From Candidatus Aminicenantes bacterium (GTDB lineage Bacteria > Acidobacteriota > Aminicenantia > Aminicenantales > Saccharicenantaceae): a DNA stretch of 61,360 nt. A program made the position numbers and the translations under genes. The stretch lies in contig VGJC01000001.1 of NCBI GenBank assembly GCA_016867635.1, positions 1-61,360 of the forward strand, read 5' to 3'. The notes under the pieces were generated by a model, which was not told the DNA's origin, ran no database searches, and saw nothing but the letters and a program-made list of their open reading frames with translations. Numbering within the stretch: the first letter of the stretch is position 1; every line of letters begins with the position of its first letter. Positions 10,145-43,695 of this stretch are shown one piece after another.

Positions 10145-11659
<1,515 letters not shown>

Positions 11660-12493
11660 CTAGGGGAGCTCGGTCTCCTCGAAGCGGCAGAGCGACCGGA
11701 TCTCGTCGTCGAAATAGGATTTCCGGCGCATGAACAGCTCGGCCCAATCGACCTCGTGCCCGTCGAAGTCCGGCCCGTCGACGCAGGCGAACTTGGTCTT
11801 GCCGGCGGCCGTGCAGCGGCAGGCGCCGCACATCCCGGTGCCGTCGACCATGATGGGGTTGAGGCTGACGATGGTCTTGATGCCCAGGGATTTGGTGGCC
11901 TGGGCCGTGGAATACATGAGATAGGTGCAGCCGATGGAGATGACCCGGCCGACGGGGGCCTCGGCCTCGAGGACCTTGTCGAGCTCCTTGTGGACGAAAT
12001 CCCCGGAGCCCAGGGCATGGTCGCGCGACGAGAACAGGACCTTGTCGCAGACCGAGAGATAGCGGTCCTTCCAATAGACGAGGTAGTCGGCCTTGGCGTC
12101 GATGACGGCGATGACCTTGTTGCCGGCCGCCCGCAGGGCCCGGGCCGTCGGCCAGAGGGCCCCGATGCCGAAACACCCGGCGGTCAGGACCACGGTCCCG
12201 AAGGGGCCGATCTCCGAGGCCCGGCCCAGCGGTCCGACGAAGACCGGGACCTCGTCGCCGGCCCGCAGGGCGGCCAGCTTGCGCGTGCTCGTCCCGACCG
12301 ACAGGAAGACGGCCGTGACCGAGCCGCGGCCGGCATCCCAGTCGGCGATGGACAGGGGAATGCGCTCGCCGCGCTCGTCGGGCATGACGATGACGAACTG
12401 GCCCGGGCGGCACTTCCTGGCCACTTCGGGGGCCTCGAACTCGATGAGGTGGAGGTTGGGGACGAGACGCTCGCGGGTCAGGATCTTGGGCAT
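11660..12493 (-). CDS. NfnA / SudB-like ferredoxin-NADP reductase subunit (FAD, 2Fe-2S)
   Basis: 277 aa. ...GQFVIVMPDERGERIPLSIAD... is the FAD-binding beta-barrel and ...SLNPIMVDGTGMCGACRC...FACVDGPDF... is the 2Fe-2S motif of the PyrK/NfnA family. Confidence 0.8.
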   Translation of the reverse strand: MPKILTRERLVPNLHLIEFEAPEVARKCRPGQFVIVMPDERGERIPLSIADWDAGRGSVTAVFLSVGTSTRKLAALRAGDEVPVFVGPLGRASEIGPFGTVVLTAGCFGIGALWPTARALRAAGNKVIAVIDAKADYLVYWKDRYLSVCDKVLFSSRDHALGSGDFVHKELDKVLEAEAPVGRVISIGCTYLMYSTAQATKSLGIKTIVSLNPIMVDGTGMCGACRCTAAGKTKFACVDGPDFDGHEVDWAELFMRRKSYFDDEIRSLCRFEETELP

Positions 12494-14712
12494 CGTCTTC
12501 CTCGCACGAGCTTCAGGCTCTTGTTCTCGAGGGCCAGGTTCAGGCCCTTGTAATCGTCCGGGTCGCGGGGCGCGGCCCCGGCCGAAGCGGCGGCCCGGGC
12601 GGTGAGGGGGGCGTCGGTCACGGCCCCCGGCCAGGCCGGCTCCTCATGCAGGACCAGGCCCTGGTCCGGAAGGGCAGCCATCGCCAGGCCGCCGAAGGCG
12701 GCCACGGTCCGGGCCAGGTCCTTCCGCGCGTCCCCGCCCGAGGAGGGGAGGATCTCCGCGCGGTCCATCCTCGCGGCCAGGTCGGCCAGGATGCGCCAGC
12801 CGGGCCTGGCCTCGCCCGCCGGTTCGAGCGCCGGTCCGGTCAGCTGGACCCGGCCCTCGACGTTGACGAACGTCCCTTCCGTTTCGAACGATGTCGCTTC
12901 GGGCAGGACGACGTCGGCCGCGGCCGTGTTCTCGTCCTCGTAGCTTCCCTGGAAGACGACGAACCCGGCCGCTCCCGGTTCGAGCTTGGGTGAAGGGCCG
13001 GCCAAGTAGAAGGCCCGGACCTTGCGCCGGGAGGCGGTCTCGACCGGGAAGGCGCCGGCGATCTCGAGCCCGCCTCGCCCGTTGGCTTCCCCGTCCAGGG
13101 GGATGACGCGGCCGTCCGTCAGGGCGGCCAGGTTCAGGAGCTCGACGAGCGCGCTCCGCCCGCCGAAGGCCCCGAGGAAAGCCGGGCCGACGAGGTAGAA
13201 AGCCGGCTTTCGCGTCTCGAGGGCCTGGGCGATATCGAGGAGCGTTCCCCGGGTCAGGCCGAGGGACCGGAGCTTCTTCGGGCCGTCGATCTTGACGGCG
13301 GCGCCGCGGACCTTGCGGACGGCGGCCGCCAGGGACTTGAGGAGCGCTTGGCCTTTCCCCGCGGGGAGGGCGGCTCTGAGAGCGGCCCGGCTGGAGGCCC
13401 CCAGGGCCTCGGTGCCGATGTGGACCAATGTCGCCCCGTTCCGGACGGCCCGGGTGACCTCGACGCCCACGATGGGCTGGGTCTCGGGGAGGTCCTCTTC
13501 GAACACGACGATCGTGCCGGCCCGGCCGATGTCGGCCATCTGAAAATTCAGAGCCAGGGACTGCCCTGTGCGGCGCCCGTGAGCGCGGAGCGCGCCGGCG
13601 GCCGACCCTTCCCAGGGGCCGGCGATCGAGCGGGCCTTCAGGATGTCGGCGGCGAAACGGTGGAGGGCGAACAGGTCCTCGCAGGAGCTCTGGGCGGAGG
13701 CGGTCACGGCGATCTGCCCGTCTCCGAGCGCTTTGAGCCCCGCGGCGGCCGCGTTCAGGGCCTCGTCCCAGGAGGCGGCCTCGAGCCGGCCGTCCCGGCG
13801 GACCATCGGCCGGAGCAGACGGCGGGGATGGCCGACGGCGGTCTTCACCAGGAACCGGCCCTTGACGCAGGCCTGGCCGCGGTTGGCCGGGCCCTCGGGG
13901 TCGGGGAGGGTCTCGACGACGCGGCCGTCCCACAACCCGATCTTCAGCCGGCAGCCCTGGGCGCAAAAGGGGCAGAGGGCCTTGACCTCGGAATCGGGCA
14001 GACGTTCGTAGCGGACGCTCCGGTCGGCCAGAGAGCCGGTCGGGCAGACATCGACACAGGCCCCGCAGAAGCGGCAGCCGGAGTCGACGAGGCGGCGGTC
14101 CATGGCCGTGCCGATGACGGTCTCGGAACCGCGGGCGACGAAGGTCAGCACGGAGGCCCCCCTGACCTCAGAGCAGATCCGGACGCACCGGCCGCAGAGG
14201 ATGCAGAGGCTGTTGTCGCGGTCGATGAACGGGTCGTCCCGCCGGACCTCGCCCTCCCGGCGCAGGGCGGGGTAGGGGACCCGTTCGAGACCGACGGCCT
14301 CGACGGCCTTCTGCAGCTGGCAGCGGCCGTTGGCCGAGCAGAGCACGCAACCCGTGGGCTCGCCCGTCTTCCGGATGGTGGATTTGTAGTCGTCGCAGGA
14401 CGACTTCTCGTCGCAGACGAGGCAGGCATGGGGATGTTCGGCCAGGATGAGCTCGAGGATCCCCCGGCGAAGCGACTTGAGCTCCGGGGAATCGGTGCGG
14501 ACCTCGAGGCCCTCTTCGGCGAAGGTCGTGCAGGCCGGCATGTAGCCTCTCCGGTCCTTGACCTCGACGAGGCAGAGCCGGCAGGCCCCGTAGGGTTCGA
14601 GAGCGGGGTGCTCGCAGAGGGACGGGATGAGGATCCCGTTGGCCTTGGCGACCTCGAGGATGGTCGGGCGGCCATCGAAGACGAGCGGACGGCCGTCGAT
14701 GATGATGTTCAT
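12478..14712 (-). CDS. NuoG/Nqo3-like Fe-S protein (2Fe-2S, His-ligated 4Fe-4S, 2x 4Fe-4S, then a degenerate molybdopterin-oxidoreductase domain)
   Basis: ORF 12478..14886 trimmed to MNIIIDGRPLVF..., whose ATG overlaps the NuoF-like stop as ATGA at 14709-14712. Motifs seen: SLCEH...GACRLC...PAC; HPHACLVCDEKSSC; CILCGRCVRIC; CRFCGACVDVCP; CPFCAQGC...C; ...LPEATSFETEGTFVNVEGRVQ.... I see no H-cluster motifs and no FDH Cys/Sec-His site. Confidence 0.75.
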   Translation of the reverse strand: MNIIIDGRPLVFDGRPTILEVAKANGILIPSLCEHPALEPYGACRLCLVEVKDRRGYMPACTTFAEEGLEVRTDSPELKSLRRGILELILAEHPHACLVCDEKSSCDDYKSTIRKTGEPTGCVLCSANGRCQLQKAVEAVGLERVPYPALRREGEVRRDDPFIDRDNSLCILCGRCVRICSEVRGASVLTFVARGSETVIGTAMDRRLVDSGCRFCGACVDVCPTGSLADRSVRYERLPDSEVKALCPFCAQGCRLKIGLWDGRVVETLPDPEGPANRGQACVKGRFLVKTAVGHPRRLLRPMVRRDGRLEAASWDEALNAAAAGLKALGDGQIAVTASAQSSCEDLFALHRFAADILKARSIAGPWEGSAAGALRAHGRRTGQSLALNFQMADIGRAGTIVVFEEDLPETQPIVGVEVTRAVRNGATLVHIGTEALGASSRAALRAALPAGKGQALLKSLAAAVRKVRGAAVKIDGPKKLRSLGLTRGTLLDIAQALETRKPAFYLVGPAFLGAFGGRSALVELLNLAALTDGRVIPLDGEANGRGGLEIAGAFPVETASRRKVRAFYLAGPSPKLEPGAAGFVVFQGSYEDENTAAADVVLPEATSFETEGTFVNVEGRVQLTGPALEPAGEARPGWRILADLAARMDRAEILPSSGGDARKDLARTVAAFGGLAMAALPDQGLVLHEEPAWPGAVTDAPLTARAAASAGAAPRDPDDYKGLNLALENKSLKLVRGRRCPRS

Positions 14713-16529
14713 GACCGTCCCCCCTCTCCCGAGTGTTTCGAGACGGCCCCGACCTTGGGCGGGCAGATGTTCATGCAAGCCCCGCACTTGATGCAGGCGG
14801 CCTGGTCGATGACGTGGACCTGTTTCCGCTCGCCGGTGATGGCGTTGACGGGGCAGGCCTTGAGGCAGAGCAGGCAGCCGACGCACTTGTCGGGCTCGAT
14901 GTCATACGTGATCAGGTTCTTGCAGACCTTGGCCGGGCAGCGGCGCTCGCGGATATGGGCCTCGTATTCGTCCCGGAAATAGCGCAGGGTGGACAGGACG
15001 GGGTTGGGCGCCGTCTGCCCCAACCCGCAGAGAGCCCCCTGCTTGACCGTCAACGCCAGCTCCTCGAGCTTGCGAAGGTCGTCGTCGGTGCCCTGGCCGC
15101 CGGCGATCCGGGCCAGGATGCCGGCCATCTGCCGGGTGCCGAGACGGCACGGGGCGCACTTGCCGCAGGACTCCTCCTCCGTGAAGCGCAGGAAGTAGAG
15201 GGCGATGTCCACCATGCAGGTGTCCTCGTCCATGACGATCATGCCTCCGGAGCCCATCATGGCCCCGGCCTTGGTCAGGCTCTCGTAATCGACGGGCAGG
15301 TCCAGGAGGTCGCGGGGGACGCAACCGCCCGAGGGCCCGCCGATCTGGATGGCCTTGAACTCCCGGCCTCCGGGGATGCCGCCGCCGATCCCGTAGACGA
15401 TCTCCCGCAGGCGGATGCCCATGGGGACCTCGACCAACCCGGTGTTGTTGATCTTGCCGACCAGCGAGAAGACCTTGGTGCCCTTGCTCGTCCCGGTCCC
15501 CAGCCCGGCGAACCAGGCCGCGCCCCGGCTGATGATGGACGGCACGTTGGCCCAGGTCTCGACGTTGTTGATGACGGTCGGCCGCCCCCAGAGCCCGTGC
15601 TCAGCGGGGTAGGGAGGTCTCTGCCGCGGATAGGCCCGCTGGCCTTCGATCGAGGCGATGAGAGCGGTCTCTTCGCCCGAGACGAAGGCCCCGGCGCCGC
15701 GGACGATCTCGAGGTCGAAGTCGAAGCCGGTGCCGAGGATGTCCTTGCCGAGCAGCCCGAGCTCGCGGGCCTGGCCGAGGGCGACGCCCATGCGCTGGAC
15801 GGCCAGGGGATACTCGTCTCGGATATAGAGGAAGCCCTTCTCGGCCCCGATGGCCCGGGCCCCGATGACCATGCCTTCGACCACGGCGTGGGGGTCGGCC
15901 TCCAGGACCGAGCGGTCCATGAAAGCCCCGGGGTCGCCCTCGTCGCCGTTGCAGATGATGTACTTCGGCTCAGCCTTCTCCCGCCGGCAGAGGGCCCATT
16001 TCCGGCCCGTAGGGAAGCCGGCCCCGCCGCGGCCCCTGAGACCCGACGCGGAGATCTCGGCGATGATCCCTTCCGGGGTCATCTCCGTCAGGGCCTTGGC
16101 CATGGCCTCGTAGCCGTCATAGGCGATGTACTCCTCGATCTTCTCCGGGTCGATGCGGCCCCGGTTGCGGAGGACGATGAGGCGCTGGTGCTTGAAGAAG
16201 TCGATGTCCGTCATCTTGGGGACGGGCTTGGCTTCGGCCGGCGGGACGTACATGAACTTCTGGACCGGGCGGCCCTTGACCAGGTGTTCCTCGACGAGGA
16301 AGGGAACGTCCTCGGGCGTCAGGCGCTGATAGAAGATGCCCTCCGGATGGACCACGACGATGGGGCCCCTCTCGCAGAACCCGTTGCAGCCGGTGGCCAC
16401 GACCAGGACCTCGTCCTGGAGGCCGCGCCCGGCGACCTCCTTCTCCAAGGCCTCCTTGAGCGTGAACGCGCCGCAGGAGACGCAGCCCGTCCCGGCGCAG
16501 ACAAGCAGGTGAGTGCGATGGTGTTTCAA
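14709..16529 (-). CDS. NuoF-like NAD(P)H-binding flavoprotein of HydB/HndC type
   Basis: 606 aa. It has an N-terminal thioredoxin-like 2Fe-2S domain (LLVCAGTGC...GCNGFCERGP), the NuoF core (GLRGRGGAGFPTGRKW, NGDEGDPGAF, SCGKCAPCR) and C-terminal 2x 4Fe-4S motifs (CVGCLLCLKACP, CIKCGACMNICP). Confidence 0.9.
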   Translation of the reverse strand: MKHHRTHLLVCAGTGCVSCGAFTLKEALEKEVAGRGLQDEVLVVATGCNGFCERGPIVVVHPEGIFYQRLTPEDVPFLVEEHLVKGRPVQKFMYVPPAEAKPVPKMTDIDFFKHQRLIVLRNRGRIDPEKIEEYIAYDGYEAMAKALTEMTPEGIIAEISASGLRGRGGAGFPTGRKWALCRREKAEPKYIICNGDEGDPGAFMDRSVLEADPHAVVEGMVIGARAIGAEKGFLYIRDEYPLAVQRMGVALGQARELGLLGKDILGTGFDFDLEIVRGAGAFVSGEETALIASIEGQRAYPRQRPPYPAEHGLWGRPTVINNVETWANVPSIISRGAAWFAGLGTGTSKGTKVFSLVGKINNTGLVEVPMGIRLREIVYGIGGGIPGGREFKAIQIGGPSGGCVPRDLLDLPVDYESLTKAGAMMGSGGMIVMDEDTCMVDIALYFLRFTEEESCGKCAPCRLGTRQMAGILARIAGGQGTDDDLRKLEELALTVKQGALCGLGQTAPNPVLSTLRYFRDEYEAHIRERRCPAKVCKNLITYDIEPDKCVGCLLCLKACPVNAITGERKQVHVIDQAACIKCGACMNICPPKVGAVSKHSGEGGRS

Positions 16530-16538
16530 TCTCGTCCT

Positions 16539-16928
16539 TCAGTACATGGTTTCGCTGCCGACGGCCAGCGCGTATTCGGCGACGACCCGGCCTTCGAGCA
16601 CGTGCTCGGCCAGGATCCTGCGCATCTTTTCGGGGGTCAGCTGGGCGTACTTGACGGGGGGCCGGTCCTTGATCTCGACCGTGACCATGGGCTCCCGGTT
16701 GCAGAGCCCGGCGCACCCGGAAGTGGTCACGATGACGTCCTGGACGGCCCGGCTCTCGATCTCCTGGAGGAGGGCGTCCATGATGCCCCGGGCCCCGGCG
16801 GCGATGCCGCAGGTCCCCATGTGCACGGTGACCTTGGCCCGCCCGGCGCCGTCCCGCAGGACGGTCATGGCCTTGGTCTTTTCGCGGATCCGGGCCAGCT
16901 CCTGGATGGTCAGCTTCTTGGTGCTCAA
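16539..16928 (-). CDS. HndB-like thioredoxin-fold [2Fe-2S] ferredoxin
   Basis: 129 aa. ...VTVHMGTCGIAAGA...TTSGCAGLCNREPMV... is the pattern of the small 2Fe-2S subunit found in hnd/hyd loci. Confidence 0.75.
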   Translation of the reverse strand: MSTKKLTIQELARIREKTKAMTVLRDGAGRAKVTVHMGTCGIAAGARGIMDALLQEIESRAVQDVIVTTSGCAGLCNREPMVTVEIKDRPPVKYAQLTPEKMRRILAEHVLEGRVVAEYALAVGSETMY

Positions 16929-16950
16929 TCTCCGTCTCCCGTCGCGTCGT

Positions 16951-17496
16951 TCACGTCGTCCCGATGCTTTCGAGTCCGGACCGGAGCGTCCGCCGGACCT
17001 CCCTGATCAGCTCCGGCCCGGCCGCGGACCCTTCGCACGATCGTGCGAAGAACGCATGGCTGGCGAACCTGAAGGCCCGGCCGTCCCGCCGATGGCGGTA
17101 ACGGAAATCGATCTCGGGATGGCCGAGGACCAACATTATCATCGTTTCGGCCATGCTCGTCAAGGGTTGCCGATCGATGTGGCGGAAACGGAACCGGGCC
17201 GCGACCCGCGTGCCCTTTCCCGGGGTCGAGCGGACGGTCAGGTCGCCGCCGCTCTGCCGGGCCGCCTGGGCCAGGAGCGGCAGGCCCAGCCCGGTCCGCT
17301 TTTGGCCGGTCGTGAAGAACGGGTCGAGGGCCCGCCGGCAAACCTCCTCGGTCATCCCCCGCCCGTCGTCCGAGACCCGGATGGTCAGAAGGCCCCGGGA
17401 CGCGTTCTCGTTGATGAGGATGACGACGCGCGTCGCCCCGGCGTTCACGGCGTTCTCGGCCAGGTCGAGGACGTGGAGGGACAGATCTTCCATCAT
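16951..17496 (-). CDS. GHKL (histidine-kinase-like) ATPase domain protein
   Basis: 181 aa with N-box LAENAVNAG, G1 DDGRGM and G2 GLGLPL. It has no HisKA/DHp region. The start ATGATG overlaps the PHP stop (ATGA). Confidence 0.75.
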   Translation of the reverse strand: MMEDLSLHVLDLAENAVNAGATRVVILINENASRGLLTIRVSDDGRGMTEEVCRRALDPFFTTGQKRTGLGLPLLAQAARQSGGDLTVRSTPGKGTRVAARFRFRHIDRQPLTSMAETMIMLVLGHPEIDFRYRHRRDGRAFRFASHAFFARSCEGSAAGPELIREVRRTLRSGLESIGTT

Positions 17497-18239
17497 GGGG
17501 CGAGGATCCTCCGGCCGCCGAGGCCGGCCAAGGCCTTGCGGACCTCCCCGAGGGTGGGAGAGGCGAGCAGAAAACCGGTCTGCCGGCTGCCGATCTCCTC
17601 GGGACGGTGGGCGTCGGAAAAACGGACCAGCGGATAGCCCGGAGGGGGAATGGACGGCAGCCCGGTTTCCGCGGCCCCGGCGGGAGAGAAGACCTCGAGG
17701 GCGTCAAAAGCCAGGTCCGGGGGGATGAACCCGAGCTGGGAGATGACGCTGAAGGAGCCCCGGTCGTAGTGGGCGGCGACGGCCAGCCCCCCGTGCGCGT
17801 GGATGAGGTCGACGATCTCGTGGACCGTCAGCTCGGTGGCTCCCATGAGGAAAAAGGGGTGGAATCCGGTGACCTCGTCGGCTTCGTTGACCAGGACCTG
17901 GTCCTCGGCGTAGGCCTTCTTCGGACCGCCGTCGGGCAGGCCCCGATGAACGGCCTCGAGCACGGGCCGGACATCGTCCATGGCGTCGAACAGGGCCAGG
18001 ACGTGGACTTCCTCCGCCGAGACGATCTCCATCCCGGGCAGGACGGTGAGGCCTGTCCCGCCGGCCGCCCGCATGGCCGCTTCGGCGTTCTCCGCGGCGT
18101 TGTGGTCGCAGACGGCGATGATATCGAGGCCGACCTCCCGGGCCCGGCCGACGATGGCCCGTGGCGACATCGTCAGCTCGCCGCACGGCGAAAGGCAGGA
18201 GTGGATGTGGAGGTCGGCCCGGTAGCGCCCGAGGGTCAT
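17493..18239 (-). CDS. PHP-domain phosphoesterase
   Basis: ORF 17493..18443 trimmed to MTLGRYRADLHIHSCLSPCG.... The HxH metal motif and later ...AVCDHN... and ...VAAHYD... fit the PHP family. The ATG overlaps the preceding DRTGG stop as ATGA at 18236-18239. Confidence 0.8.
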   Translation of the reverse strand: MTLGRYRADLHIHSCLSPCGELTMSPRAIVGRAREVGLDIIAVCDHNAAENAEAAMRAAGGTGLTVLPGMEIVSAEEVHVLALFDAMDDVRPVLEAVHRGLPDGGPKKAYAEDQVLVNEADEVTGFHPFFLMGATELTVHEIVDLIHAHGGLAVAAHYDRGSFSVISQLGFIPPDLAFDALEVFSPAGAAETGLPSIPPPGYPLVRFSDAHRPEEIGSRQTGFLLASPTLGEVRKALAGLGGRRILAP

Positions 18240-18580
18240 CGCGCCCCGCGCAGGCCGAGCTGGTGAAGCCTTCCGCTCAGCTCGAAGGCCCCGAGGGAGG
18301 TCCCGAGCAGCGGCAGGCGTTGCTCCTCGGACTGACGGACGGTGTCTTCGGACGGCTCCCGGCCGTTGGTGATGATGACGCCGGCCAGGTCCTTGAGGAC
18401 GGCCACGGCGACGACGTTGGGATGGATCTGGATGGTGATCCACAGGTCGTCCTTTCGGCCGTGGGCCATGACGTCGCTCATCAGGTCCCCGATGTAGGCC
18501 CCCGCGACCGGGCGGTCGAGGCCGCCGCGGCCGGCGTGGACCTTGAGCTCGAGTTGCCGGACGATGTCGGAAAGCGTCAT
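18236..18580 (-). CDS. DRTGG-domain protein (small, stand-alone)
   Basis: ORF 18236..18955 trimmed to MTLSDIVRQLELKV.... It is about 114 aa and a paralogue of 20295..20633, sharing ...DLMSDV... and ...RLPLL.T.L..FE.... The ATG overlaps the upstream stop (ATGA). Confidence 0.6.
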   Translation of the reverse strand: MTLSDIVRQLELKVHAGRGGLDRPVAGAYIGDLMSDVMAHGRKDDLWITIQIHPNVVAVAVLKDLAGVIITNGREPSEDTVRQSEEQRLPLLGTSLGAFELSGRLHQLGLRGAR

Positions 18581-19851
18581 CGGATCTCCTTTCGGAAGAG
18601 GGGGCAGTCGTCGAGGTCGGCCAGGCCGCGGACGATGTCCTCGGCCAAGGTCAGGCAGTCGGGGGCGCCGCAGGCCCCGCAGTCCTTTCCGGGCAGGAGC
18701 CGAAGGAGCTCGTCCCGGCGGGTGGCCTTCCGGATGGCCTCGACGGGATCGGGGTCGAGCAGCGGCACTTCGATCGGCTTGACGGGGTGCTGGAACGAGA
18801 GGAAGTTCTCGCGGACGAAGGGGCCGAAGTCGGCCCGCTCGACACCCACCTTCTCGCTGGCCATGGAGACCAGCCGGAGAATGCGGCTCTTGGTGATGAA
18901 GCGGTTCTCGACGGCCAGCGGGCCGCCGACGCAGCCGTCCGGGCAGACCATGCACTCGAGGTAGTCGACGTCCTTGAGCTGGCCGGCCTCGACCTGGTCG
19001 AGGACCCGGATCGTGTCCCGGACCCCCGACACGGCGATCGTCCGGTGCTTCTTGAGGCCTCGCGTCTCGCCTCCCGAGAGCGACCAGCCGAGGCCCAGGC
19101 CGCTGAAGACGTTCGCCGGGAACAGGTGGTGCATGATCGTGCTCTCGTCGATCTTCTTCAGGGCCTGGAGGAGCCGGGGGTAGATGTCGCGGATGGAGAT
19201 GGCCCCGTCCAGGTAGGACTTGGCCATGGTCGCCGGCCTATTGATGGAGACGATCTTGGCCGGGCAGGGAGTGATGTGGATGAGGCCGATCTCTTCGGGC
19301 GCGAGCTTCAGGACGCCGGGCAGGGTGGCCCGCAGGATCTTGGCGGCGATCTCCCGGGGCGGCTCGATGGGCACGATGAGCCCGCAGAGGGACGGGTAGC
19401 GCCGCTGGATGAGCCGTACGACGACCGGGCAGGTCGTCGAGATCAGCGGCCGGGGCTGCGGGTGGGCGGCCAGGTACTCCTCGGCGGCCGAGGCGTAGAG
19501 CTCGCAGATCGAGCTGAGCTCGAAGACCTGGTCGAAGCCCTCGTGGCGGAGGGCCGACAGGACCTCGTTGGGCGTCGTATCGTTGCCGAACTGGCCGTAG
19601 AGCACGGTGGCCGGGATGGCGACCTTGTACCGGAAGGCCCGCAGGTCGGAGAAGGATGTCGTTCGGGATTCGATGGCGTCGTTGGGGCAGTACCGGATGC
19701 ACTCGCCGCAGTCGATGCACAGGTCGCCGAGGACCTGGGCCTTGTTGTCGCGGACCCGGATGGCCCGCGTCGGACAGGCCGTCAGGCAGTGGACGCAGCC
19801 GCCGCACTTTTCGAGGTTGACGCGGATGGGATGGTCGGGGCTCCGGCTCAC
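18577..19851 (-). CDS. [FeFe]-hydrogenase-like protein, sensory/regulatory type (2x 4Fe-4S, H-cluster domain, C-terminal 4-Cys domain)
   Basis: 424 aa. Motifs: CGGCVHCLTACP and CIDCGECIRYCP; H-cluster-like STTCP (canonical TSCCP), ITPCPAK (MPCxxK) and ECMVCPDGCVGG (ExMxCxxGCxxG); C-terminal CGACGAPDC...x16...C. Confidence 0.75.
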   Translation of the reverse strand: MSRSPDHPIRVNLEKCGGCVHCLTACPTRAIRVRDNKAQVLGDLCIDCGECIRYCPNDAIESRTTSFSDLRAFRYKVAIPATVLYGQFGNDTTPNEVLSALRHEGFDQVFELSSICELYASAAEEYLAAHPQPRPLISTTCPVVVRLIQRRYPSLCGLIVPIEPPREIAAKILRATLPGVLKLAPEEIGLIHITPCPAKIVSINRPATMAKSYLDGAISIRDIYPRLLQALKKIDESTIMHHLFPANVFSGLGLGWSLSGGETRGLKKHRTIAVSGVRDTIRVLDQVEAGQLKDVDYLECMVCPDGCVGGPLAVENRFITKSRILRLVSMASEKVGVERADFGPFVRENFLSFQHPVKPIEVPLLDPDPVEAIRKATRRDELLRLLPGKDCGACGAPDCLTLAEDIVRGLADLDDCPLFRKEIR

Positions 19852-20291
19852 GACGGCCTCCCGTCCCGGGCGAAGGTCATCTCCAGCCGCGTGCCCCGGC
19901 CCGGCTCGGAGACGATCCGGAAGACGTCGGCGTTCCTCTTGATGTTCGGCAGGCCCATGCCGGCCCCGAAGCCGAGCTCGCGCATCTCTCTGGTCGCGGT
20001 CGAGTAGCCCTCGGTCATGGCCAGCTCGATGTCGGGGATGCCCGGGCCGTGGTCGTCGACGATGATCGTGACGTCCGCGGGCGTCACGGCCAGGCGGACC
20101 GTCCCCTGGAACGCGTACATGATGACGTTCATCTCGGCCTCGAAGGAGGCGATGGCCGCCCTGCGGACGACCTGGACATCGAGCCCCAGCTCCTTCAGCA
20201 GGTCCTTGATGCGCCGGGAGACCTCACCCGCGCGGGCGAATTCCCCGCCCTTGAGAGAGTACTCCTGACGGTAACACAGGTCCTCTTCCAT
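19848..20291 (-). CDS. RsbW/SpoIIAB-like GHKL ATPase (anti-sigma-factor-type Ser/Thr kinase fold)
   Basis: 147 aa. ...ASFEAEMNVIMYAF...VDDHGPGIPD...GFGAGMGLPNI...EPGRGTRLEM are the N, G1 and G2 boxes of a single-domain HATPase_c protein. Confidence 0.7.
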   Translation of the reverse strand: MEEDLCYRQEYSLKGGEFARAGEVSRRIKDLLKELGLDVQVVRRAAIASFEAEMNVIMYAFQGTVRLAVTPADVTIIVDDHGPGIPDIELAMTEGYSTATREMRELGFGAGMGLPNIKRNADVFRIVSEPGRGTRLEMTFARDGRPS

Positions 20292-20294
20292 GAC

Positions 20295-20633
20295 TCACGC
20301 GTCCGACCGCGGCGATCCTATCCGGATGCAGGCCTCGAACGTCGACAAGGGAGTCGAAATGAGCGGCAGGCGGTTGTCCCGGGCCTCGCCGACGACGGCG
20401 GCCGAGGGCCGCTTCCCTTGGACGAACACGACGGCCGCGACGTCGGCCACGGCGGCCGTGCTGACGACATGGCCGTTGACGAGGCCGGTGATCAGGAGCT
20501 CCCCCGGGCCCGTGAAGGCCAGGACGTCGCTCATGAGGTCGGAGGCGAAGACCCTCGTGAATTCGAGGCCCAGGTCGCTTCCCGGGGTCAGCAGCTCCCC
20601 GTCGAGGCGATCCAGGACGTTCCTCAGGTTCAT
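20295..20633 (-). CDS. DRTGG-domain protein (small, stand-alone)
   Basis: 112 aa and a paralogue of 18236..18580. The start overlaps the NuoE-like stop by 4 nt. Confidence 0.6.
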   Translation of the reverse strand: MNLRNVLDRLDGELLTPGSDLGLEFTRVFASDLMSDVLAFTGPGELLITGLVNGHVVSTAAVADVAAVVFVQGKRPSAAVVGEARDNRLPLISTPLSTFEACIRIGSPRSDA

Positions 20634-21127
20634 CCGCCGGCCTCCGTGCCGTCCGCCGACGCCGGGGCCGGCTTGAGCGTTTCCAGCACGGCGTTGGCCT
20701 TGGTCTCGTTCATCTGGCCGTAGTAGCGGCCGTCGGCGACGACCAGCGGGGCCAGGGCGCAGGCGCCCAGGCAGTTGACCCGTTCCAGCGTGTATTCGCC
20801 GTCGGCCGAGGTCTGGCCGGCCGCGATCCCGAGCTTGCGCTCGAAGTGCTCGAGGACCGCCCCTCCTCCGCGGACGTGGCAGGCCGTTCCCATGCAGACC
20901 GTGCAGATGTGGCGGCCGCGCGGCCGCAGGCTGAAGGACTTGTAGAACGTGGCGACGCTGTAGACGTGGGCCGGCGAGATGTCAAGCTCCCGGGCCACGT
21001 CGTCGAGCGTTTCGGAGGACAGCCAGCGGAACCGGTCCTGGATGTCCTGGAGGATGGGGATCAAGGCCCGCTTCTCGCCGTGATACCGGGCGACGACGTC
21101 CCGGACGACCGTGGGTTCCGAGCTCAT
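20630..21127 (-). CDS. NuoE-like [2Fe-2S] subunit (HydC/HndA type)
   Basis: ORF 20630..21256 trimmed to MSSEPTVVRDVV..., with GGAGAAGGAG upstream. ...ALIPILQDIQDRFRWL...ATFYKSF...HICTVCMGTACHVRGG...VNCLGACALAP... is the NuoE 2Fe-2S signature. Confidence 0.85.
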   Translation of the reverse strand: MSSEPTVVRDVVARYHGEKRALIPILQDIQDRFRWLSSETLDDVARELDISPAHVYSVATFYKSFSLRPRGRHICTVCMGTACHVRGGGAVLEHFERKLGIAAGQTSADGEYTLERVNCLGACALAPLVVADGRYYGQMNETKANAVLETLKPAPASADGTEAGG

Positions 21128-21201: not shown

Positions 21202-21786
21202 TCAGCGGCAGCGCTGCCAGTCCGATTCGCTGAACATCCGGTCCAGCTGCTTCCACAGCTGCTTGACGTCGCAGGTCATGACGATCAGGTCCTGGGACCC
21301 GCCCTTGATATCCTTGACGAAATCGGGCATCAGCGAATCGTCACGGAAGCCCAGCCGCCGGAAGATCTTCTGGGCCCCGACCTGCGGCCGCATCATCTTG
21401 GCGACGATCGTCTGGAGGTTGTTCTGGACGGCGATGAAGTAGAGCTCGCGGATCATGATCGCCCCGAGCCCCCTCTGCTGGAAAGGCCGGGCCACGATCA
21501 GGCGGATCTCGCCCTGGTGCTTGCTCCAGGCCTCGCCCGACAGCTCCAGGGCGCCGCTGGCGATGATCAGGCCGCCGTGGACGGCGACGACCCGGATGTC
21601 ATCGCCGGACTCGACCCGCCGGAGCCGCCGTTGCACGGCCTTGCGGTCGGTGACGTCGAACTTGAGGTACTTGCGGTCCTCCATGGGAAGAGCCAGGAAG
21701 AACTCCATCAACAGGTCGAGGTCCTCCATCATCAGCCTCCGGATGGTGACCTCCGTGCCGTCCTTCAGTTTTTCGATCTTGTCCAT
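21202..21786 (-). CDS. GNAT family N-acetyltransferase
   Basis: 194 aa. ...IVARPFQQRGLGAIMIRELYFIAV... is the Q/RxxGxG/A acetyl-CoA-binding motif. Confidence 0.7.
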   Translation of the reverse strand: MDKIEKLKDGTEVTIRRLMMEDLDLLMEFFLALPMEDRKYLKFDVTDRKAVQRRLRRVESGDDIRVVAVHGGLIIASGALELSGEAWSKHQGEIRLIVARPFQQRGLGAIMIRELYFIAVQNNLQTIVAKMMRPQVGAQKIFRRLGFRDDSLMPDFVKDIKGGSQDLIVMTCDVKQLWKQLDRMFSESDWQRCR

Positions 21787-21835: not shown

Positions 21836-21864
21836 ACTCTATGACCTCGCCGGAAAATTGTCAA
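21836..21864 (-). promoter_or_regulatory. Sigma-70-type promoter upstream of the GNAT gene (TTGACA-17-TAGAGT)
   Basis: The reverse complement of 21859-21864 is TTGACA and that of 21836-21841 is TAGAGT, with a 17-nt spacer, about 50 nt upstream of the GNAT ATG. Confidence 0.5.
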
Positions 21865-26683: not shown

Positions 26684-27649
26684 ATGGCTAAGCCGAAATT
26701 CGCTATGTATTGGGCGGCCAGTTGCGGCGGCTGCGAGATCGCTTTCCTCGACATCCGGGAGAAGATCCTGGACTTCGACGCGGCGGCGGACCTCATCTTC
26801 TGCCCCTGCCTCATGGACACCAAATACAAGGACATCGAGGCCATGCCCGACGGCTCCATCGACGTGACCCTGTTCAACGGGGGGATCCGCAGCGAGGAGA
26901 ACCTCCACATCGCCAAGCTCCTCCGGAAGAAATCCAAGGTCCTGGTGGCCTTCGGCTCCTGCGCTACCGAGGGGTGCATCCCCGGGCTGGCCAATCTGAC
27001 GACCAAGAGCGAGATCCTGGATTACGTCTACCGCCGGTCGCCGTCCGTTGTCGCCGGCAACCAGGTCCTGCCCCAGCTTTCGACCGAAACCCCGTCCGGG
27101 ACCCTGACCCTGCCGGACATGTTCGAGACCTTGCGGACCCTGGACCAGGTCTTGGATGTCGACTACCGGATGCCCGGATGTCCGCCGGTGGCCGAGCAGA
27201 TCTGGGCCGTCGCCGAAGCGGCCCTGACCGGGAACCTGCCTCCGAAAGGCTCCCTGGTCGGGGTCAATCCCAAGACCGTCTGCGACGAGTGCGAGCGGAC
27301 CAAGGAAGAGAAGAAGATCAAGGCCTTCCGCCGCCCCCATCTCGTCGACCCGCGGGACATCGACCCTGTCAAATGCCTGCTGGAGCAGGGCCTCATCTGC
27401 AACGGCCCGGCCGTCCACGCCGGCTGCGGGGCCCTCTGCCCTCAGGTCAACCTGGGGTGCCGCGGCTGCTACGGGCCGGCCGAAGGCATCCAGGACGTCG
27501 GGGCCAAGCTGGCCGGGGCCATCGCTTCGGTCATCGACAGCGACGACCCCGCCGAGATCGACAGGATCGTCGGGGAGATCCTCGACCCCGTCGGGACGTT
27601 CTACCGGTTCGGCCTGGCCGGTTCCATCGTCGGGAGGCGCATCATATGA
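26684..27649 (+). CDS. [NiFe] hydrogenase small subunit, group 3 (MvhG-like)
   Basis: 321 aa. MAKPKFAMYWAASCGGCEIAFLD..., ...GSCATEGCIPG..., ...MPGCPP..., with a C-terminal Cys cluster CDEC...C...C...GC...C..C. Confidence 0.85.
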   Translation: MAKPKFAMYWAASCGGCEIAFLDIREKILDFDAAADLIFCPCLMDTKYKDIEAMPDGSIDVTLFNGGIRSEENLHIAKLLRKKSKVLVAFGSCATEGCIPGLANLTTKSEILDYVYRRSPSVVAGNQVLPQLSTETPSGTLTLPDMFETLRTLDQVLDVDYRMPGCPPVAEQIWAVAEAALTGNLPPKGSLVGVNPKTVCDECERTKEEKKIKAFRRPHLVDPRDIDPVKCLLEQGLICNGPAVHAGCGALCPQVNLGCRGCYGPAEGIQDVGAKLAGAIASVIDSDDPAEIDRIVGEILDPVGTFYRFGLAGSIVGRRII

Positions 27650-29103
27650 AGACCATCACCATCGATCCCATCACCCGGCTCGAAGGCCACGGCAAGATCT
27701 CCATCTTCCTGGACGACGCCGGCAACGTCGCCGACGCCTACCTCCAGGTCCCGGAGCTACGCGGCTTCGAGAAGTTCTGCGTCGGCCGCCCCGTCGAGGA
27801 GATGCCGCGCATCACGACCCGCATCTGCGGGGTCTGCCCCGAGGCCCACATGATGGCCGCGGCCAAGGCCTGCGACGCCGTCTATCACGTCGAGCTGCCG
27901 CGCACGGCCAAGATGCTGCGGGAGCTCCTCTACGTCATCTTCTACGTGACCGATCACGCCACTCACTTCTACGCCCTGGGCGGCCCGGACTTCGTCCTGG
28001 GGCCGGAAGCCCCGCCGGCCCAGCGCAACATCCTCGGCGTCGTCCACAAGGTCGGGGTCGAGATCGGCCGCAAGGTCATCGGCATGCGCGGCGCCTGCCA
28101 CGAGCTCATCAAGATGATGGGCGGCAAGGCCGTCCACCCCATCGGCGCCCTCCCGGGCGGGATGAGCAAGGGCCTGAGCAAGGAGGAGCGGGACGAGGTC
28201 CTCAAGATCGGCGAAGAGGCCGTCGAGTTCGGCAAGTTCAGCATCGGCGTCTTCAACCAGATCGTCCTGGGGAACAAGGAATACGTCGACCTCATCCTGA
28301 GCGACAGCTTCACCCACCGGACCTACAACATGGGGCTGGTCGACGAAAAGAACCATGTCAACTTCTACGACGGCCGGGTCCGGGTGACCGGGCCGGACGG
28401 GGCCGAGCGGGCCAAGTTCGCGGCGGCCGACTACCTCGAACACATCGTCGAGCACGTCGAGCCCTGGTCCTACCTCAAGTTCCCCTTCCTGCGCAAGGTC
28501 GGCTGGAAGGGCCTGGTCGACGGGCCCGAGAGCGGGATCTACAAAGCGACCCCCCTTTCCCGGCTCAACGTCTCGGAGGGCATGGCGACGCCTCTGGCCG
28601 ACGAAGAGCACGACCGGCTGTACAAGACCCTGGGCGGGAAACCCGTCCATCAGACCCTGGCCACCCACTGGGCCCGGCTCGTCGAGCTTCTCTACGCCGC
28701 CGAGCGCTGGGTCGAGCTGGCCTCCGACCCCGAGATCGTCGGCCCCGACTACCGGGTCGTCCCCGACCGGACCCCCGACGAGGGCATGGGCGTCGTCGAA
28801 GCCCCCCGGGGCACGCTCTTCCATCATTACAAGACCGACAAGAACGGCATCCTCCAGGAGGCCAACCTGATCGTCGGCACGACCAACAACAACGCGGCCA
28901 TCAACCTGTCGGTCAAGAAGGCCGCCATGGGCTTCATCAAGAACGGCGAGGTCCGCGAGGGGCTGCTGAACATCGTCGAGATGGCCTTCCGGGCTTACGA
29001 CCCCTGCTTCGGGTGCGCGACCCACGCTTGGCCCGGCCAGGCCGCGCTCCACGTCCGCATCTTCGGCCCGGCCGGCGATCTCGTCCACGATCTCAGGAGA
29101 TGA
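27646..29103 (+). CDS. [NiFe] hydrogenase large subunit, group 3c-like (MvhA-like)
   Basis: ORF 26710..29103 trimmed to [18 protein letters not shown].... The ATG overlaps the small-subunit stop as ATGA at 27646-27649. N-terminal Ni-binding [10 protein letters not shown] and C-terminal DPCFGCATH are present, followed by a 25-aa tail. Confidence 0.9.
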
Positions 29104-30551
29104 CCACGGCCATGAAAGTCCTTGTGCTCAACAGCGGCAGCTCGTCGGTCAAGTTCCAGTTCATCCGCATGGACGACGAAGGCCTCCTGGCCAAAGGCAT
29201 CGTCGAGAAGATCGGCTCGAGCGACGCCATCGTCACCTACCAGCCGGCCGAAAAGAACAGGATCCGCGAGATCCGGGAGGTCCTCAACCACGGCGTGGCC
29301 ATCGAGATCGTCCTGGCCCTCCTGCTTCACCCCCAGCACGGCGTCATCCGGGACAAGGGCGAGATCGACGGCATCGGCCACCGCGTCGTCCACGGCGGCG
29401 AGGACTTCGCCGATTCCGTGCTGATCACCGACAAGGTCAAGGCGACCATCCGCAAGTGCATCCAGTTCGCGCCCCTGCACAACCCCCACAACCTCAAGGG
29501 CATCGACGCCTGCGAGACGCTCCTGCCGGAGGCCCCGCAGGTCGCGGTCTTCGACACGGCCTTCCATCAGACGATCCCCGCCCGAGCCTTCATCTACGGG
29601 CTGCCCTACGCGCTCTACCGCAAGCTCGGCGTACGCCGGTACGGCTTCCACGGCACCTCCCACAGCTACGTCGCCCACCGGGCCGCCGAGCTTATCGGCC
29701 GGCCGATCGAGAAGCTCAAGCTCATCACCTGCCACCTGGGCAACGGGGCCAGCATCGCCGCCGTCGCCGGCGGCCGGTCGATCGACACCTCGATGGGCTT
29801 CACGCCCCTCGAAGGCCTGGTCATGGGCACCCGCTGCGGGAGCATCGATCCGGCCCTCGTCCCCTACATCATGGACCGCGAAAAGCTGGGGACCAAGGAG
29901 ATCGACTCCATCATGAACAAGAACAGCGGCATGCTGGGGCTGACCGAGACCTCCAACGACATGCGCGAGATCGAACAGGAAGCGGCCCACGGCAGCGAGC
30001 GCCATCAGCTGGCCCTCGAGATCTACTGCCATCACGTCAAGAAGCACATCGGGGCCTACATGGCCGAGATGGGCGGCGTGGACGCCGTCGTCTTCACCGG
30101 CGGGATCGGCGAGAACTCCCGACTCGTCCGGCGCCTGGCCGCCGAGGGACTCGAGGAGTTCGGCATCCGCCTCGATGCCGCCAAGAACGAGGCCAACGAG
30201 ACCGTCGTCTCTTCCGGACGGGTCAAGCTCCTGGTCGTCCCGACCAACGAGGAGCTGGCCATCGCCCGGGACGCGCGGCGGATCCTCGAGGCCCGGCTGC
30301 CGGCGGAGCCTGCCCCGGCGGCCGAGCCCGGGCCGGCCCGGCCGGCGGCCCTGCCGCCCGCCGACGTGGCCCGCCTGGTCCTCCTGTGGGCCCGCGATCC
30401 CGGCCAGAGCGCCGAGTCCTTGGCCCGGAAATGGGGCCGGGAGGTCGGCCGGCCGGTCGGCGCCGGCCTGGTCGCCGAGGAGCTCGCGAGGCTCAACCTG
30501 GCGTCCGTCGCCGGCGACGTCAGGAAACCGGCCAAGAAAAGGAACAAGTAA
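29100..30551 (+). CDS. ackA: Acetate kinase with a C-terminal extension of about 105 aa
   Basis: ORF 29013..30551 trimmed to [20 protein letters not shown].... ATG 29100 overlaps the mvhA stop as ATGA; an alternative ATG lies at 29112. Motifs: ...GHRVVHGG..., ...FDTAFH..., ...YGFHGTSH..., ...VVFTGGIGENS..., ...VVPTNEELAIA.... The family normally ends about there, but this ORF continues with a Pro/Ala linker and a further segment of about 65 aa. Confidence 0.9.
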   Translation: MTTAMKVLVLNSGSSSVKFQFIRMDDEGLLAKGIVEKIGSSDAIVTYQPAEKNRIREIREVLNHGVAIEIVLALLLHPQHGVIRDKGEIDGIGHRVVHGGEDFADSVLITDKVKATIRKCIQFAPLHNPHNLKGIDACETLLPEAPQVAVFDTAFHQTIPARAFIYGLPYALYRKLGVRRYGFHGTSHSYVAHRAAELIGRPIEKLKLITCHLGNGASIAAVAGGRSIDTSMGFTPLEGLVMGTRCGSIDPALVPYIMDREKLGTKEIDSIMNKNSGMLGLTETSNDMREIEQEAAHGSERHQLALEIYCHHVKKHIGAYMAEMGGVDAVVFTGGIGENSRLVRRLAAEGLEEFGIRLDAAKNEANETVVSSGRVKLLVVPTNEELAIARDARRILEARLPAEPAPAAEPGPARPAALPPADVARLVLLWARDPGQSAESLARKWGREVGRPVGAGLVAEELARLNLASVAGDVRKPAKKRNK

Positions 30552-30562
30552 AGGATCACGCC

Positions 30563-31060
30563 ATGGACAAGATCGACCGCGAAGAAGCCGGCTGGCTGGT
30601 CGCCCTGGCCTGGCTGAGCGCCCTGGAGGAGACGGCCCGCGATTTTCACGGCACGCGGCCGTGGGTCTTCAGCGCCCGGGCCTACGAGCATGCCGTCCAG
30701 TACTACCTCCACCTCCTCGGCGACGAGTACGGGATGCAGATCAAGAAATCCCTCTCCATCCGGGCCGCCGTCGAGAACTACATCGAGATCGGCATCGCCG
30801 GCGGCCTGTTCCGCGCCGCGAACACGTTCGAGCTCGTCGACGTCAATCCCTTCCACCTGGAGATCACGGTCCACGACTGCGTCTATCTGAAGAGCTGCCA
30901 GGCGCTCATCGACCAGGGCTTCTCCGTCCGCGACCTGACCTGCGCCCGGATCGGCTCGTTCCGGGCGGCCGTCAAGGCCCTGGCCAACATCGACTGCGAG
31001 TACCAGGTGACCTCGTTCAACATCGAAGGGGACTGCAAGGGCTACATCGAGAGGACCTGA
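30563..31060 (+). CDS. Hypothetical protein, possible V4R-like (Cys-containing small-molecule-binding) domain
   Basis: 165 aa from the internal ATG of ORF 29456..31060 (MDKIDREEAGWL...). The C-terminal pattern ...HDCVYLKSC...TCARIGSFRAAVKALA...EGDCKGYIE resembles the V4R Cys/Gly pattern. This is a by-eye assignment only. Confidence 0.4.
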   Translation: MDKIDREEAGWLVALAWLSALEETARDFHGTRPWVFSARAYEHAVQYYLHLLGDEYGMQIKKSLSIRAAVENYIEIGIAGGLFRAANTFELVDVNPFHLEITVHDCVYLKSCQALIDQGFSVRDLTCARIGSFRAAVKALANIDCEYQVTSFNIEGDCKGYIERT

Positions 31061-31061
31061 A

Positions 31062-32897: not shown

Positions 32898-32919
32898 ATG
32901 CCATTTTAGAGGAGAGAGC

Positions 32920-33327: not shown

Positions 33328-33336
33328 GGGAAGCCC

Positions 33337-37457: not shown

Positions 37458-37460
37458 ACC

Positions 37461-41486: not shown

Positions 41487-41487
41487 C

Positions 41488-42039: not shown

Positions 42040-42075
42040 GCCGGCGGCCGAACGCCGGACCTGCGGAGGGATAAA

Positions 42076-43686: not shown

Positions 43687-43695
43687 CCTCGGGTC

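Follow-up and report, generated by a model that had tools for sequence, protein, structure and literature searches.

The stretch of DNA analysed here (the window) comprises 61,360 nucleotides of contig VGJC01000001.1 from a Candidatus Aminicenantes bacterium (assembly GCA_016867635.1), and its G+C content is 65-72%. It carries a cluster running from a NuoE-like gene to nfnB, the core of which is considered here as a candidate complex between BfuABC subunits and NfnAB (NfnSL; NADH-dependent ferredoxin:NADP+ oxidoreductase). All genes of this set lie on the minus strand, at the coordinates first claimed for them, and were identified by Pfam and NCBIfam scans of the window proteins. They are listed below in order of transcription, with lengths in amino acids (aa); identities are to the counterpart genes of another locus, L087.

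20630-21127, minus strand: BfuC, a NuoE-like [2Fe-2S] subunit of 165 aa (PF01257 2Fe-2S_thioredx, E 1.8e-51)
20295-20633, minus strand: DRTGG-domain protein 1 of the sensory cassette (PF07085; 65% identity)
19848-20291, minus strand: GHKL (HATPase_c) protein 1 of the sensory cassette (PF02518 and PF13581; 70% identity)
18577-19851, minus strand: HydS-like putative sensory [FeFe]-hydrogenase homologue of 424 aa (Fe_hyd_lg_C, PF04060 FeS and 2x[4Fe-4S])
18236-18580, minus strand: DRTGG-domain protein 2 of the sensory cassette (PF07085; 56% identity)
17493-18239, minus strand: PHP-domain putative phosphoesterase of the sensory cassette (PF02811; 60% identity)
16951-17496, minus strand: GHKL (HATPase_c) protein 2 of the sensory cassette (PF02518, E 1.8e-18; 56% identity)
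16539-16928, minus strand: HndB/HydD-like thioredoxin-type [2Fe-2S] protein of 129 aa (PF01257, partial match)
14709-16529, minus strand: BfuB, a HydB-type NuoF-like subunit of 606 aa (Complex1_51K, NADH_4Fe-4S, N-terminal 2Fe-2S_thioredx and C-terminal Fer4 dicluster)
12478-14712, minus strand: BfuA, a NuoG/formate dehydrogenase (Fdh)-like Fe-S subunit of 744 aa (Fer2_4, NADH-G_4Fe-4S_3, Fer4_Nqo3, Molybdop_Fe4S4 and Molybdopterin)
11660-12493, minus strand: NfnA (NfnS), the FAD/NAD(H) and [2Fe-2S] subunit, 277 aa (NF004862, 326 bits, above cut-off)
10145-11641, minus strand: NfnB (NfnL), the GltD-like FAD/NADPH subunit with 2x[4Fe-4S], 498 aa (TIGR01316, 606 bits against a 472-bit cut-off)

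An earlier note, made from the sequence letters, had given the gene order from the NuoE-like to the NuoF-like gene and the domain content of these proteins; both were borne out by the Pfam and NCBIfam scans, and the ATGA overlap that it placed between nuoF and the nuoG-like gene is present at 14709-14712. At the next junction nfnA starts 16 nt within the 3' end of the nuoG-like gene, and a GAGGA motif precedes this start.

The part of the cluster that is conserved was delimited by a synteny survey, in which one genome per species was scanned and the open reading frames (ORFs) of the resulting 80 loci were compared by phmmer. These loci are mostly from metagenome-assembled genomes (MAGs) of Aminicenantes, with a few labelled Acidobacteria, Elusimicrobia or Clostridiales, and their NuoG-like proteins range from 95% identity, in the closest genome match (a Candidatus Aminicenantes MAG), down to 37%. 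Counting the loci long enough to tell, nfnA lies immediately downstream of the nuoG-like gene in 74 of 74 and is followed by nfnB in 68 of 68, while nuoF is found upstream in 70 of 70 and nuoE in 65 of 68. The stop codon of the nuoG-like gene overlaps or abuts the nfnA start in 77 of the 82 loci in which this gap was measured (median gap, -1 nt), and the nuoF/nuoG junction is gapless in 67 of 73 (median, -4 nt). Five annotated relatives (55-76% identity) all carry nuoE, nuoF, the nuoG-like gene, nfnA and nfnB, and only the closest has the sensory insert. The conserved unit is thus nuoE-nuoF-nuoG-like-nfnA-nfnB. The earlier note had read the locus as a HydABC-type sensory operon in which the NuoG-like protein takes the place of HydA, a view that this survey does not sustain, as the sensory genes and hndB accompany the unit only in the closest relatives. 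A literature search found no paper on the five-gene unit, and neither Aminicenantes nor Acidobacteria is mentioned in the supplement of the Bfu classification paper.

The first two subunits of the unit resemble the NADH- and ferredoxin-reactive core of known bifurcating enzymes. Over its full length, both termini included, the window BfuB matched the HydB of the NiFe hydrogenase of A. mobile (7t2r_B) with 892 bits, and further full-length matches were obtained with the HydB of an [FeFe]-hydrogenase (7q4v_B, 826 bits), the NfnB of C. saccharolyticus (9bov_B, 769 bits) and the Stn subunit of S. ovata (8oh5_B, 743 bits); the match to Nqo1 of complex I (2fug_1) scored about 395 bits. BfuB contains the FMN/NADH site together with both extra cluster domains, the N-terminal Trx-like [2Fe-2S] and the C-terminal 2x[4Fe-4S], so that by architecture and by its matches to proven BfuB proteins the NuoF-like protein is a genuine Bfu/HydB-type subunit, and the Bfu/HydBC-type assignment previously made for the NuoF-like and NuoE-like pair stands. 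The other members expected of the Bfu family, a NuoE-like BfuC and a BfuA with N-terminal [2Fe-2S] and [4Fe-4S] clusters, are encoded as well.

Variants of NuoF were observed among the surveyed loci. In L015 (779-3874), L066, L070, L071, L073, L067 and L074, NuoF is fused to a GltD/NfnB-like FAD domain that replaces the C-terminal 2x[4Fe-4S]; the fused ORFs of L066, L070, L071 and L073 encode about 1030-1050 aa, and these clusters still continue into the nuoG-like gene, nfnA and nfnB. L013 and L015 come from a single MAG, in which they are paralogous.

The third subunit, BfuA, occupies the HydA position. Pfam detected in it a [2Fe-2S] domain, a His-ligated [4Fe-4S] domain, a ferredoxin-like dicluster, Molybdop_Fe4S4 and Molybdopterin. 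The same scan found in BfuA no Fe_hyd_lg_C (PF02906), a domain that among the locus proteins occurs only in the 424-aa HydS-like protein; no Molydop_binding (PF01568, domain IV); and no Fer4_20 or Pyr_redox domain, that is, none of the inserted NfnL-like domain by which the Stn/NfnABC enzymes are recognized. The active-site residues of formate dehydrogenases are also replaced: Sec140-His141 of E. coli FdhH align to W367-E368 of BfuA (to S370-A371 in ungapped alignments to two other formate dehydrogenases), and the catalytic Arg of the solved enzymes aligns to D540. Across 75 members of the BfuA family the columns of Sec/Cys, His and Arg are variable, whereas none of the 24 positions taken as putative Fe-S ligands varies in any of the 75 sequences. 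By these features BfuA is a non-catalytic, cofactor-less Fe-S protein built on a NuoG/Fdh-like scaffold. The earlier note had described the 744-aa protein in the HydA position as having the Fe-S motifs shared by HydA and NuoG, a molybdopterin-oxidoreductase fold and no H-cluster motifs, with another sequence where formate dehydrogenases have Cys/Sec-His, and all of this agrees with our results. As a refinement, the Cys of the SSCEDLF stretch aligns with the Asn of the TNEE motif and not with the metal ligand.

That BfuA is instead a genuine formate dehydrogenase, NAD-linked or bifurcating, whose active site is unusual is suggested by the name "formate dehydrogenase alpha subunit" given to many homologues in the source databases, by the fold and best PDB sequence matches, which include FdsA-type formate dehydrogenases, and by apparently intact formate dehydrogenases among the wider relatives. 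Yet the Sec/Cys, His and Arg are replaced, the columns in which they stood vary and domain IV is absent, and BfuA is therefore not an ordinary formate dehydrogenase; the alignments revealed none of the intact Mo/W ligand that the earlier note had named as the mark of such an enzyme. We consider this alternative hardly credible. Structure comparison does not discriminate here: the AlphaFold2 model of BfuA is confident for the Mo-like domain (the Fe-S part, residues 92-237, has pLDDT <50), and in a Foldseek search against the PDB three kinds of protein matched it about equally well (TM about 0.5), namely formate dehydrogenases of FdsA type, the 75-kDa/NuoG subunit of complex I and NiFe-HydA. More than 1,800 BfuA homologues were found, mostly in Aminicenantes and Acidobacteriota metagenomes, with source names that vary between formate dehydrogenase alpha, NuoG and molybdopterin oxidoreductase.

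BfuA subunits of this NuoG/Fdh-like, cofactor-less kind have been described before, in StnABC/NfnABC and in NiFe-HydABCSL. The FdhF-like domain of StnC is "catalytically inactive" (PMC10482914), the pterin site in the Fdh/NuoG-like domain of Csac NfnA is incomplete (PMC11829005), and the 692-aa HydA of A. mobile NiFe-HydABCSL is homologous to FdsA and Nqo3 (PMC8880783). The family of the window protein probably descended from an FDH-type (formate dehydrogenase-type) BfuA after cofactor loss. A C-terminal extension resembling domain IV is kept in a clade of about 850 aa and lost in the clade of the window, and its retention in the deeper clade suggests a stepwise decay from a formate-dehydrogenase-type ancestor. 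The motif "…D(D/Y)Y(K/R)(G/S)LNL…K(S/G)L…R" remains conserved and forms, in the clade of the window, the C-terminal tail just ahead of the NfnA start. The proteins of about 850 aa (L045, L049, L031, L037 and others) make up a deep clade with about 40% identity.

One further feature of BfuA is a tandem duplication of its His-ligated cluster loop at residues 93-131 (window 14320-14436, minus strand), with the pattern EH93-x3-C-x2-C-x5-C followed by E118-x3-C-x2-C-x5-C-x-LQ. The duplication does not vary among 75 BfuA relatives and hints at an additional cluster or metal site. As a hallmark of the family, or as the scar of an excised NfnL-like domain, the loop was discarded: it is not diagnostic because many of the wider relatives have it too, apparently intact formate dehydrogenases among them.

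Alternatively, the NuoEFG-like proteins could be the detachable NADH/ferredoxin input module of a membrane complex encoded elsewhere, either an 11-subunit complex I devoid of nuoEFG ("Nuo-Bfu") or an Ehr-type complex. The top NCBIfam model for the 744-aa protein is indeed NuoG (TIGR01973), albeit with 320 bits, under the 470-bit cut-off. The protein also carries an "EGR" motif, which we take to be that of NuoG, where "ER(R)" stands in the formate dehydrogenases of the alignment. Nuo-Bfu has been predicted as one type of Bfu enzyme (PMC9304861), and an association of FDH with Ehr was proposed for regions with nuoE, nuoF and "fdhA" beside Nfn in Margulisbacteria and Saganbacteria (PMC6349859). 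However, nuo or Ehr membrane genes were seen neither within ±10 kb of the unit in the five annotated relatives nor within ±8 kb of it in L089 and L090, the annotated parts of the window have none either, and in the described Nuo-Bfu loci the Bfu genes lie inside the nuo operon (PMC9304861). Besides, NADH dehydrogenase is listed as not found in one paper on an Aminicenantes genome (PMC4897734), the NuoF is of Bfu type, and the fusions with NfnA described below would be left unexplained. A respiratory NuoG is not what these data describe, and we regard a membrane partner as improbable. The earlier note had allowed that the protein might simply be the NuoG of a split complex I; at the locus itself there is no nuo operon, and a split across the genome is kept within the alternative just weighed.

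Downstream of BfuA, NfnA and NfnB appear canonical in sequence and carry the domains of the NfnAB family. The window NfnB matched T. maritima NfnB (4ylf_B) with 553 bits and keeps the "GRVCPQExQCE" stretch; its matches to the NfnL-like domains of 9bov_A and 8oh5_C (350 and 301 bits, respectively) are well below that to the free NfnB. NfnA matched P. furiosus NfnS (5jca_S) with 267 bits. Among the 150 best representatives from a library of 1.8 billion proteins are three in which the NuoG-like domains are followed by a DHODB_Fe-S_bind domain at the C-terminus: P0205 (1080 aa), P0222 (1079 aa) and P0238 (1023 aa). The entire window NfnA aligns with residues 792-1061 of P0205 (39% identity, E 2e-68), and the contigs of P0205 and P0222, two assemblies from different sources, read nuoE, Bfu-type nuoF, fusion gene and nfnB; P0238 is called a fusion from its domain content only.

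The strongest competing explanation is that two independent enzymes share one operon, namely a free NfnAB heterodimer and a BfuABC that has another partner or acts as a plain NADH:ferredoxin oxidoreductase, their genes being linked only since both balance redox pools. Related but separate redox enzymes commonly co-localize, and NfnAB is canonical here and self-sufficient in characterized organisms (PMC10482914). Against this stand the adjacency in 74 of 74 loci across deep divergence, the codon overlap in 77 of 82 and the NuoG-like::NfnA fusions in at least two assemblies; moreover, following the logic of the Bfu family, a Bfu core deprived of a third substrate has no known productive reaction (PMC9304861). 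The coupled genes and the fusions argue against NfnAB being a free dimer at this locus, and we judge the explanation by independent enzymes unlikely.

It is from the conserved adjacency, the overlapping codons and the fusions that we take NfnAB to be a physical part of a Bfu-type assembly. Sequence and gene context make it probable, in our opinion, that the core of the locus encodes a single BfuABC–NfnAB complex by which NAD(H), NADP(H) and ferredoxin would be interconverted. BfuC and BfuB would form the NADH- and ferredoxin-reactive core of HydBC/Bfu type, BfuA would serve only as an Fe-S wire, and the canonical NfnA-NfnB pair would be bound to the BfuA scaffold, leaving the complex with neither a hydrogenase nor a formate dehydrogenase site. 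Since nfnAB is translationally coupled to the gene of BfuA and nfnA is in some organisms fused to it, NADP(H) at NfnAB is the likely third substrate, which would react at the flavin of NfnB to which NADP(H) binds. Such a complex would be a transhydrogenase of the Stn/NfnABC kind, with NfnA and NfnB as separate subunits in place of an NfnL-like insertion in BfuA. The earlier note concluded that the operon had no recognizable terminal module; given the coupling of nfnAB to the nuoG-like gene and the occasional fusion of nfnA, that conclusion is not supported, and the "missing" module is most likely nfnAB itself. The locus is thus most likely a variant inside the Bfu/Nfn world, rather than a Bfu module left with no terminal enzyme.

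Several known systems help to place this arrangement. SfrAB of Geobacter sulfurreducens reportedly consists of a NuoG/Fdh-like Fe-S subunit and a GltD-like NADPH flavoprotein, with neither a HydBC-type core nor NfnA. Among the closest characterized enzymes are StnABC/NfnABC (Nfn-Bfu) of S. ovata, C. saccharolyticus and Thermococcus sibiricus (PMC10482914, PMC11829005, PMC12018979), which have in common with the window the HydBC-type core, a BfuA with a cofactor-less Fdh/NuoG-like domain and an associated NADPH flavoprotein module of NfnL/GltD type. By analogy, StnC and Csac NfnA, each a BfuA with an NfnL-like and an inactive Fdh/NuoG-like domain, offer a precedent for tying NfnAB to BfuA (PMC10482914; PMC11829005). 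In these enzymes, however, the NfnL-like domain interrupts BfuA directly behind the "EH" in the motif of the His-ligated cluster and a homologue of NfnA is lacking, whereas the window has only the 25-residue duplicated Cys loop at this place and encodes a separate canonical NfnB and NfnA. The NfnL-like flavin of the Stn enzyme was reported as non-bifurcating (PMC10482914), and in comparison with that domain the window NfnB keeps the NfnB-type CPQExQCE motif. The NfnAB proteins of T. maritima (4YLF) and P. furiosus (5JCA) are full-length close homologues of the window pair; the characterized ones are free heterodimers, in contrast to nfnAB of the window type, which is invariably coupled to nuoE-nuoF-nuoG-like and whose nfnA is sometimes fused.

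NiFe-HydABCSL of A. mobile (PMC8880783) contains the closest solved BfuB, a non-catalytic NuoG/FdsA-like BfuA and separate subunits for the third substrate, but what it adds is a NiFe small/large pair from the same operon, where the window adds NfnA and NfnB. Nuo-Bfu (predicted; PMC9304861) similarly has a NuoG-like BfuA with no catalytic domain beside a Bfu-type NuoF and NuoE; its genes lie inside a 14-gene nuo operon, whereas the surroundings of the present cluster contain no nuo membrane genes, either in the window or in its annotated relatives. The nearest prior mention that we found concerns Margulisbacteria and Saganbacteria, in which one region holds the same kinds of genes, nuoE/nuoF-like and "fdhA" beside Nfn; its authors interpreted them as an FDH (possibly docking to an Ehr complex) and a separate Nfn, and the likeness to the window is by gene kinds only (PMC6349859).

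Some considerations weigh against the BfuABC–NfnAB complex. Its physical assembly, the electron path between NfnAB and BfuA and the net reaction are deduced wholly from sequence and gene context, and the conserved order could partly reflect vertical inheritance inside one phylum. The NfnAB encoded here displays no obvious loss of its NAD or ferredoxin branches; because a canonical NfnAB is a complete bifurcating enzyme alone, joining it to a Bfu core looks redundant and gives no clear net reaction. Furthermore, the NuoF variants with a GltD-like domain indicate a module more plastic than a simple Nfn-Bfu model predicts.

A bolder form of the proposal is a two-stage machine in which NfnB is connected by its ferredoxin branch to the flavin/iron-sulfur site of Bfu, so that bifurcation of the NfnSL type and of the Bfu type would proceed in series. 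The wiring could make use of the conserved FS0/N7-like cluster together with the A4/A5 branch in the emptied Fdh-like domain, or else of the duplicated cluster loop, and an example of the stoichiometry would be 4 NADPH + 3 NAD+ + Fd(ox) -> 4 NADP+ + 3 NADH + Fd(red). Such a serial arrangement is conceivable because the class II benzoyl-CoA reductase BamB-I couples two bifurcation modules in one complex, a HydBC-like con/bifurcating module and a second, unrelated bifurcating flavoprotein module (preprint, bioRxiv 10.64898/2026.04.10.717634). In BamB-I the second module is HdrABC-like and feeds a tungsten enzyme, whereas in the window it would be NfnAB, with no further catalytic subunit. We hold the serial form to be doubtful. 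If it were true, the NADPH:NADH:ferredoxin stoichiometry would be changed and ferredoxin or flavodoxin could be reduced at potentials far below those reached by either enzyme alone, electrons that nearby ferredoxin-dependent enzymes (aldehyde:ferredoxin oxidoreductase, 2-oxoacid oxidoreductase) could use.

The genes between nuoE and nuoF have a history of their own. The 424-aa HydS-like protein has three motifs of H-cluster type (STTCP, PCPAK and ECMVCPDGCVGG), ends in an Fe-S domain of PF04060, and has GHKL and PHP neighbours; the catalytic hydrogenase models of NCBIfam all scored far under their cut-offs for it. The earlier note placed sensory [FeFe]-hydrogenase genes within bifurcating HydABC clusters, which agrees in general terms with a published statement that group C3 sensory genes usually share one cluster with bifurcating group A3 hydrogenases (PMC11406978). 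In the synteny scan the cassette was absent from most related clusters. A HndB-like gene lies near the cluster in few surveyed loci (L003/L008, L007, L009 and L014, and on the opposite strand in L005/L019), and the window protein is 69-77% identical to the HndB-like proteins of L005, L087 and L088. In another Aminicenantes genome the orthologous cassette adjoins a different Bfu-like cluster, composed of nuoE, hndB, nuoF, a short hoxU-like gene and a gene with a Glu_synthase domain, and the same chromosome also carries an Nfn-type cluster free of sensory genes. The window NuoE is 77% identical to that of the sensor-free Nfn-type cluster (L001) versus 50% to that of the GltB-type cluster (L087), and its NuoF is 84% identical to the NuoF of the sensor-free cluster; the cassette and HndB, on the other hand, are orthologous to those of the Glu_synthase-type cluster (55-71% identity). 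As the flanking subunits match one cluster and the cassette and HndB the other, we infer that the cassette was inserted between nuoE and nuoF in the lineage of the window. There, the HydS-like sensor, the DRTGG, GHKL and PHP proteins and the HndB-like ferredoxin presumably place the operon or the enzyme under H2 or redox control. No paper on the DRTGG/PHP cassette was found in the literature search.

In L087 (9217-18248) and L088 (4047-12913) the HydS-type cassette stands beside nuoE, hndB, nuoF, a 230-aa HoxU-like BfuA and a 526-aa Glu_synthase protein (PF01645), a cluster that may encode a Bfu-linked glutamate-synthase-like enzyme; glnA lies upstream of it in L087. Other clusters, those of L005/L019 (14966-21904), L012 and L014, have beside some of them a HydS-like::histidine-kinase fusion, response regulators and a fused NfnA-NfnB of 754 aa. 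These kinase fusions and regulators suggest that hydrogen-sensing regulators recur near the module, in arrangements that differ.

Upstream of nuoE, a GNAT acetyltransferase gene (21202-21786, minus strand) directly precedes the cluster, as it does in L001, L003 and L004; a sigma-70-like promoter match at 21836-21864 (minus strand) lies upstream of the GNAT gene, and the operon may therefore start there. Farther away, on the plus strand at 26684-39134, there is a likely Mvh-Hdr-type gene set comprising genes for MvhG-like (321 aa) and MvhA-like (485 aa) NiFe hydrogenase subunits, ackA, and genes for a HEAT-repeat protein, HdrC, HdrB, HdrA, MvhD, an Fe-S protein and a TfrA/FrdA-like flavoprotein; it may encode a hydrogen- or Hdr-linked fumarate-reductase-type system. 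The genes at 39280-45438 (plus strand) encode 2-oxoacid:ferredoxin oxidoreductase subunits, a class I fumarate hydratase and aldehyde:ferredoxin oxidoreductase, so that the neighbourhood is rich in ferredoxin-dependent enzymes.

The NiFe genes of the Mvh-Hdr-type set (26684-29103), 5.5 kb upstream of the cluster, raise the alternative of a NiFe-Bfu hydrogenase of HydABCSL type, to which they would contribute the small and large subunits. The closest solved relative of the window BfuB is the NiFe-HydB of A. mobile (892 bits), BfuA resembles the 692-aa NiFe-HydA, the window large subunit matched A. mobile HydL with 383 bits, and L001 and L004 have NiFe hydrogenase genes at the same relative position. 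Nevertheless, the small subunit belongs to the full-length MvhG type, aligning with 5odc_E from end to end (214 bits), and not to the short 179-aa HydS type; no short HoxY/HydS-type small subunit with a large subunit is encoded together with the hydABC-like genes at the locus. The hydrogenase genes are divergent from the cluster, with sucCD and a two-component system in between, they are followed on their own strand by hdrCBA-mvhD, and they are absent near the cluster in L005, L006, L089 and L090. As the missing catalytic partner, this hydrogenase was thus set aside, being of Mvh type with its own Hdr/MvhD genes, and the NiFe-Bfu alternative appears very improbable.

Taken as a BfuABC–NfnAB assembly, the locus points to a complex not described before, in which electron-bifurcating machines of two different kinds would be coupled. 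Bfu-type and NfnSL-type enzymes have been treated as unrelated solutions to the problem of linking NADH, NADPH and ferredoxin; if the proposal is true, nature also combines both, and a plausible evolutionary link to the fused Stn/NfnABC enzymes would follow. Should the modules act in series, this would be a second case of stacked bifurcation after class II benzoyl-CoA reductase. The complex would in addition offer a defined and tractable target for expression, cryo-EM and measurements of stoichiometry. For the Aminicenantes and related MAGs, it would provide a role for many genes named "formate dehydrogenase alpha" or "NuoG", and the metabolic reconstructions that call these genes FDH or complex I would then probably be wrong.

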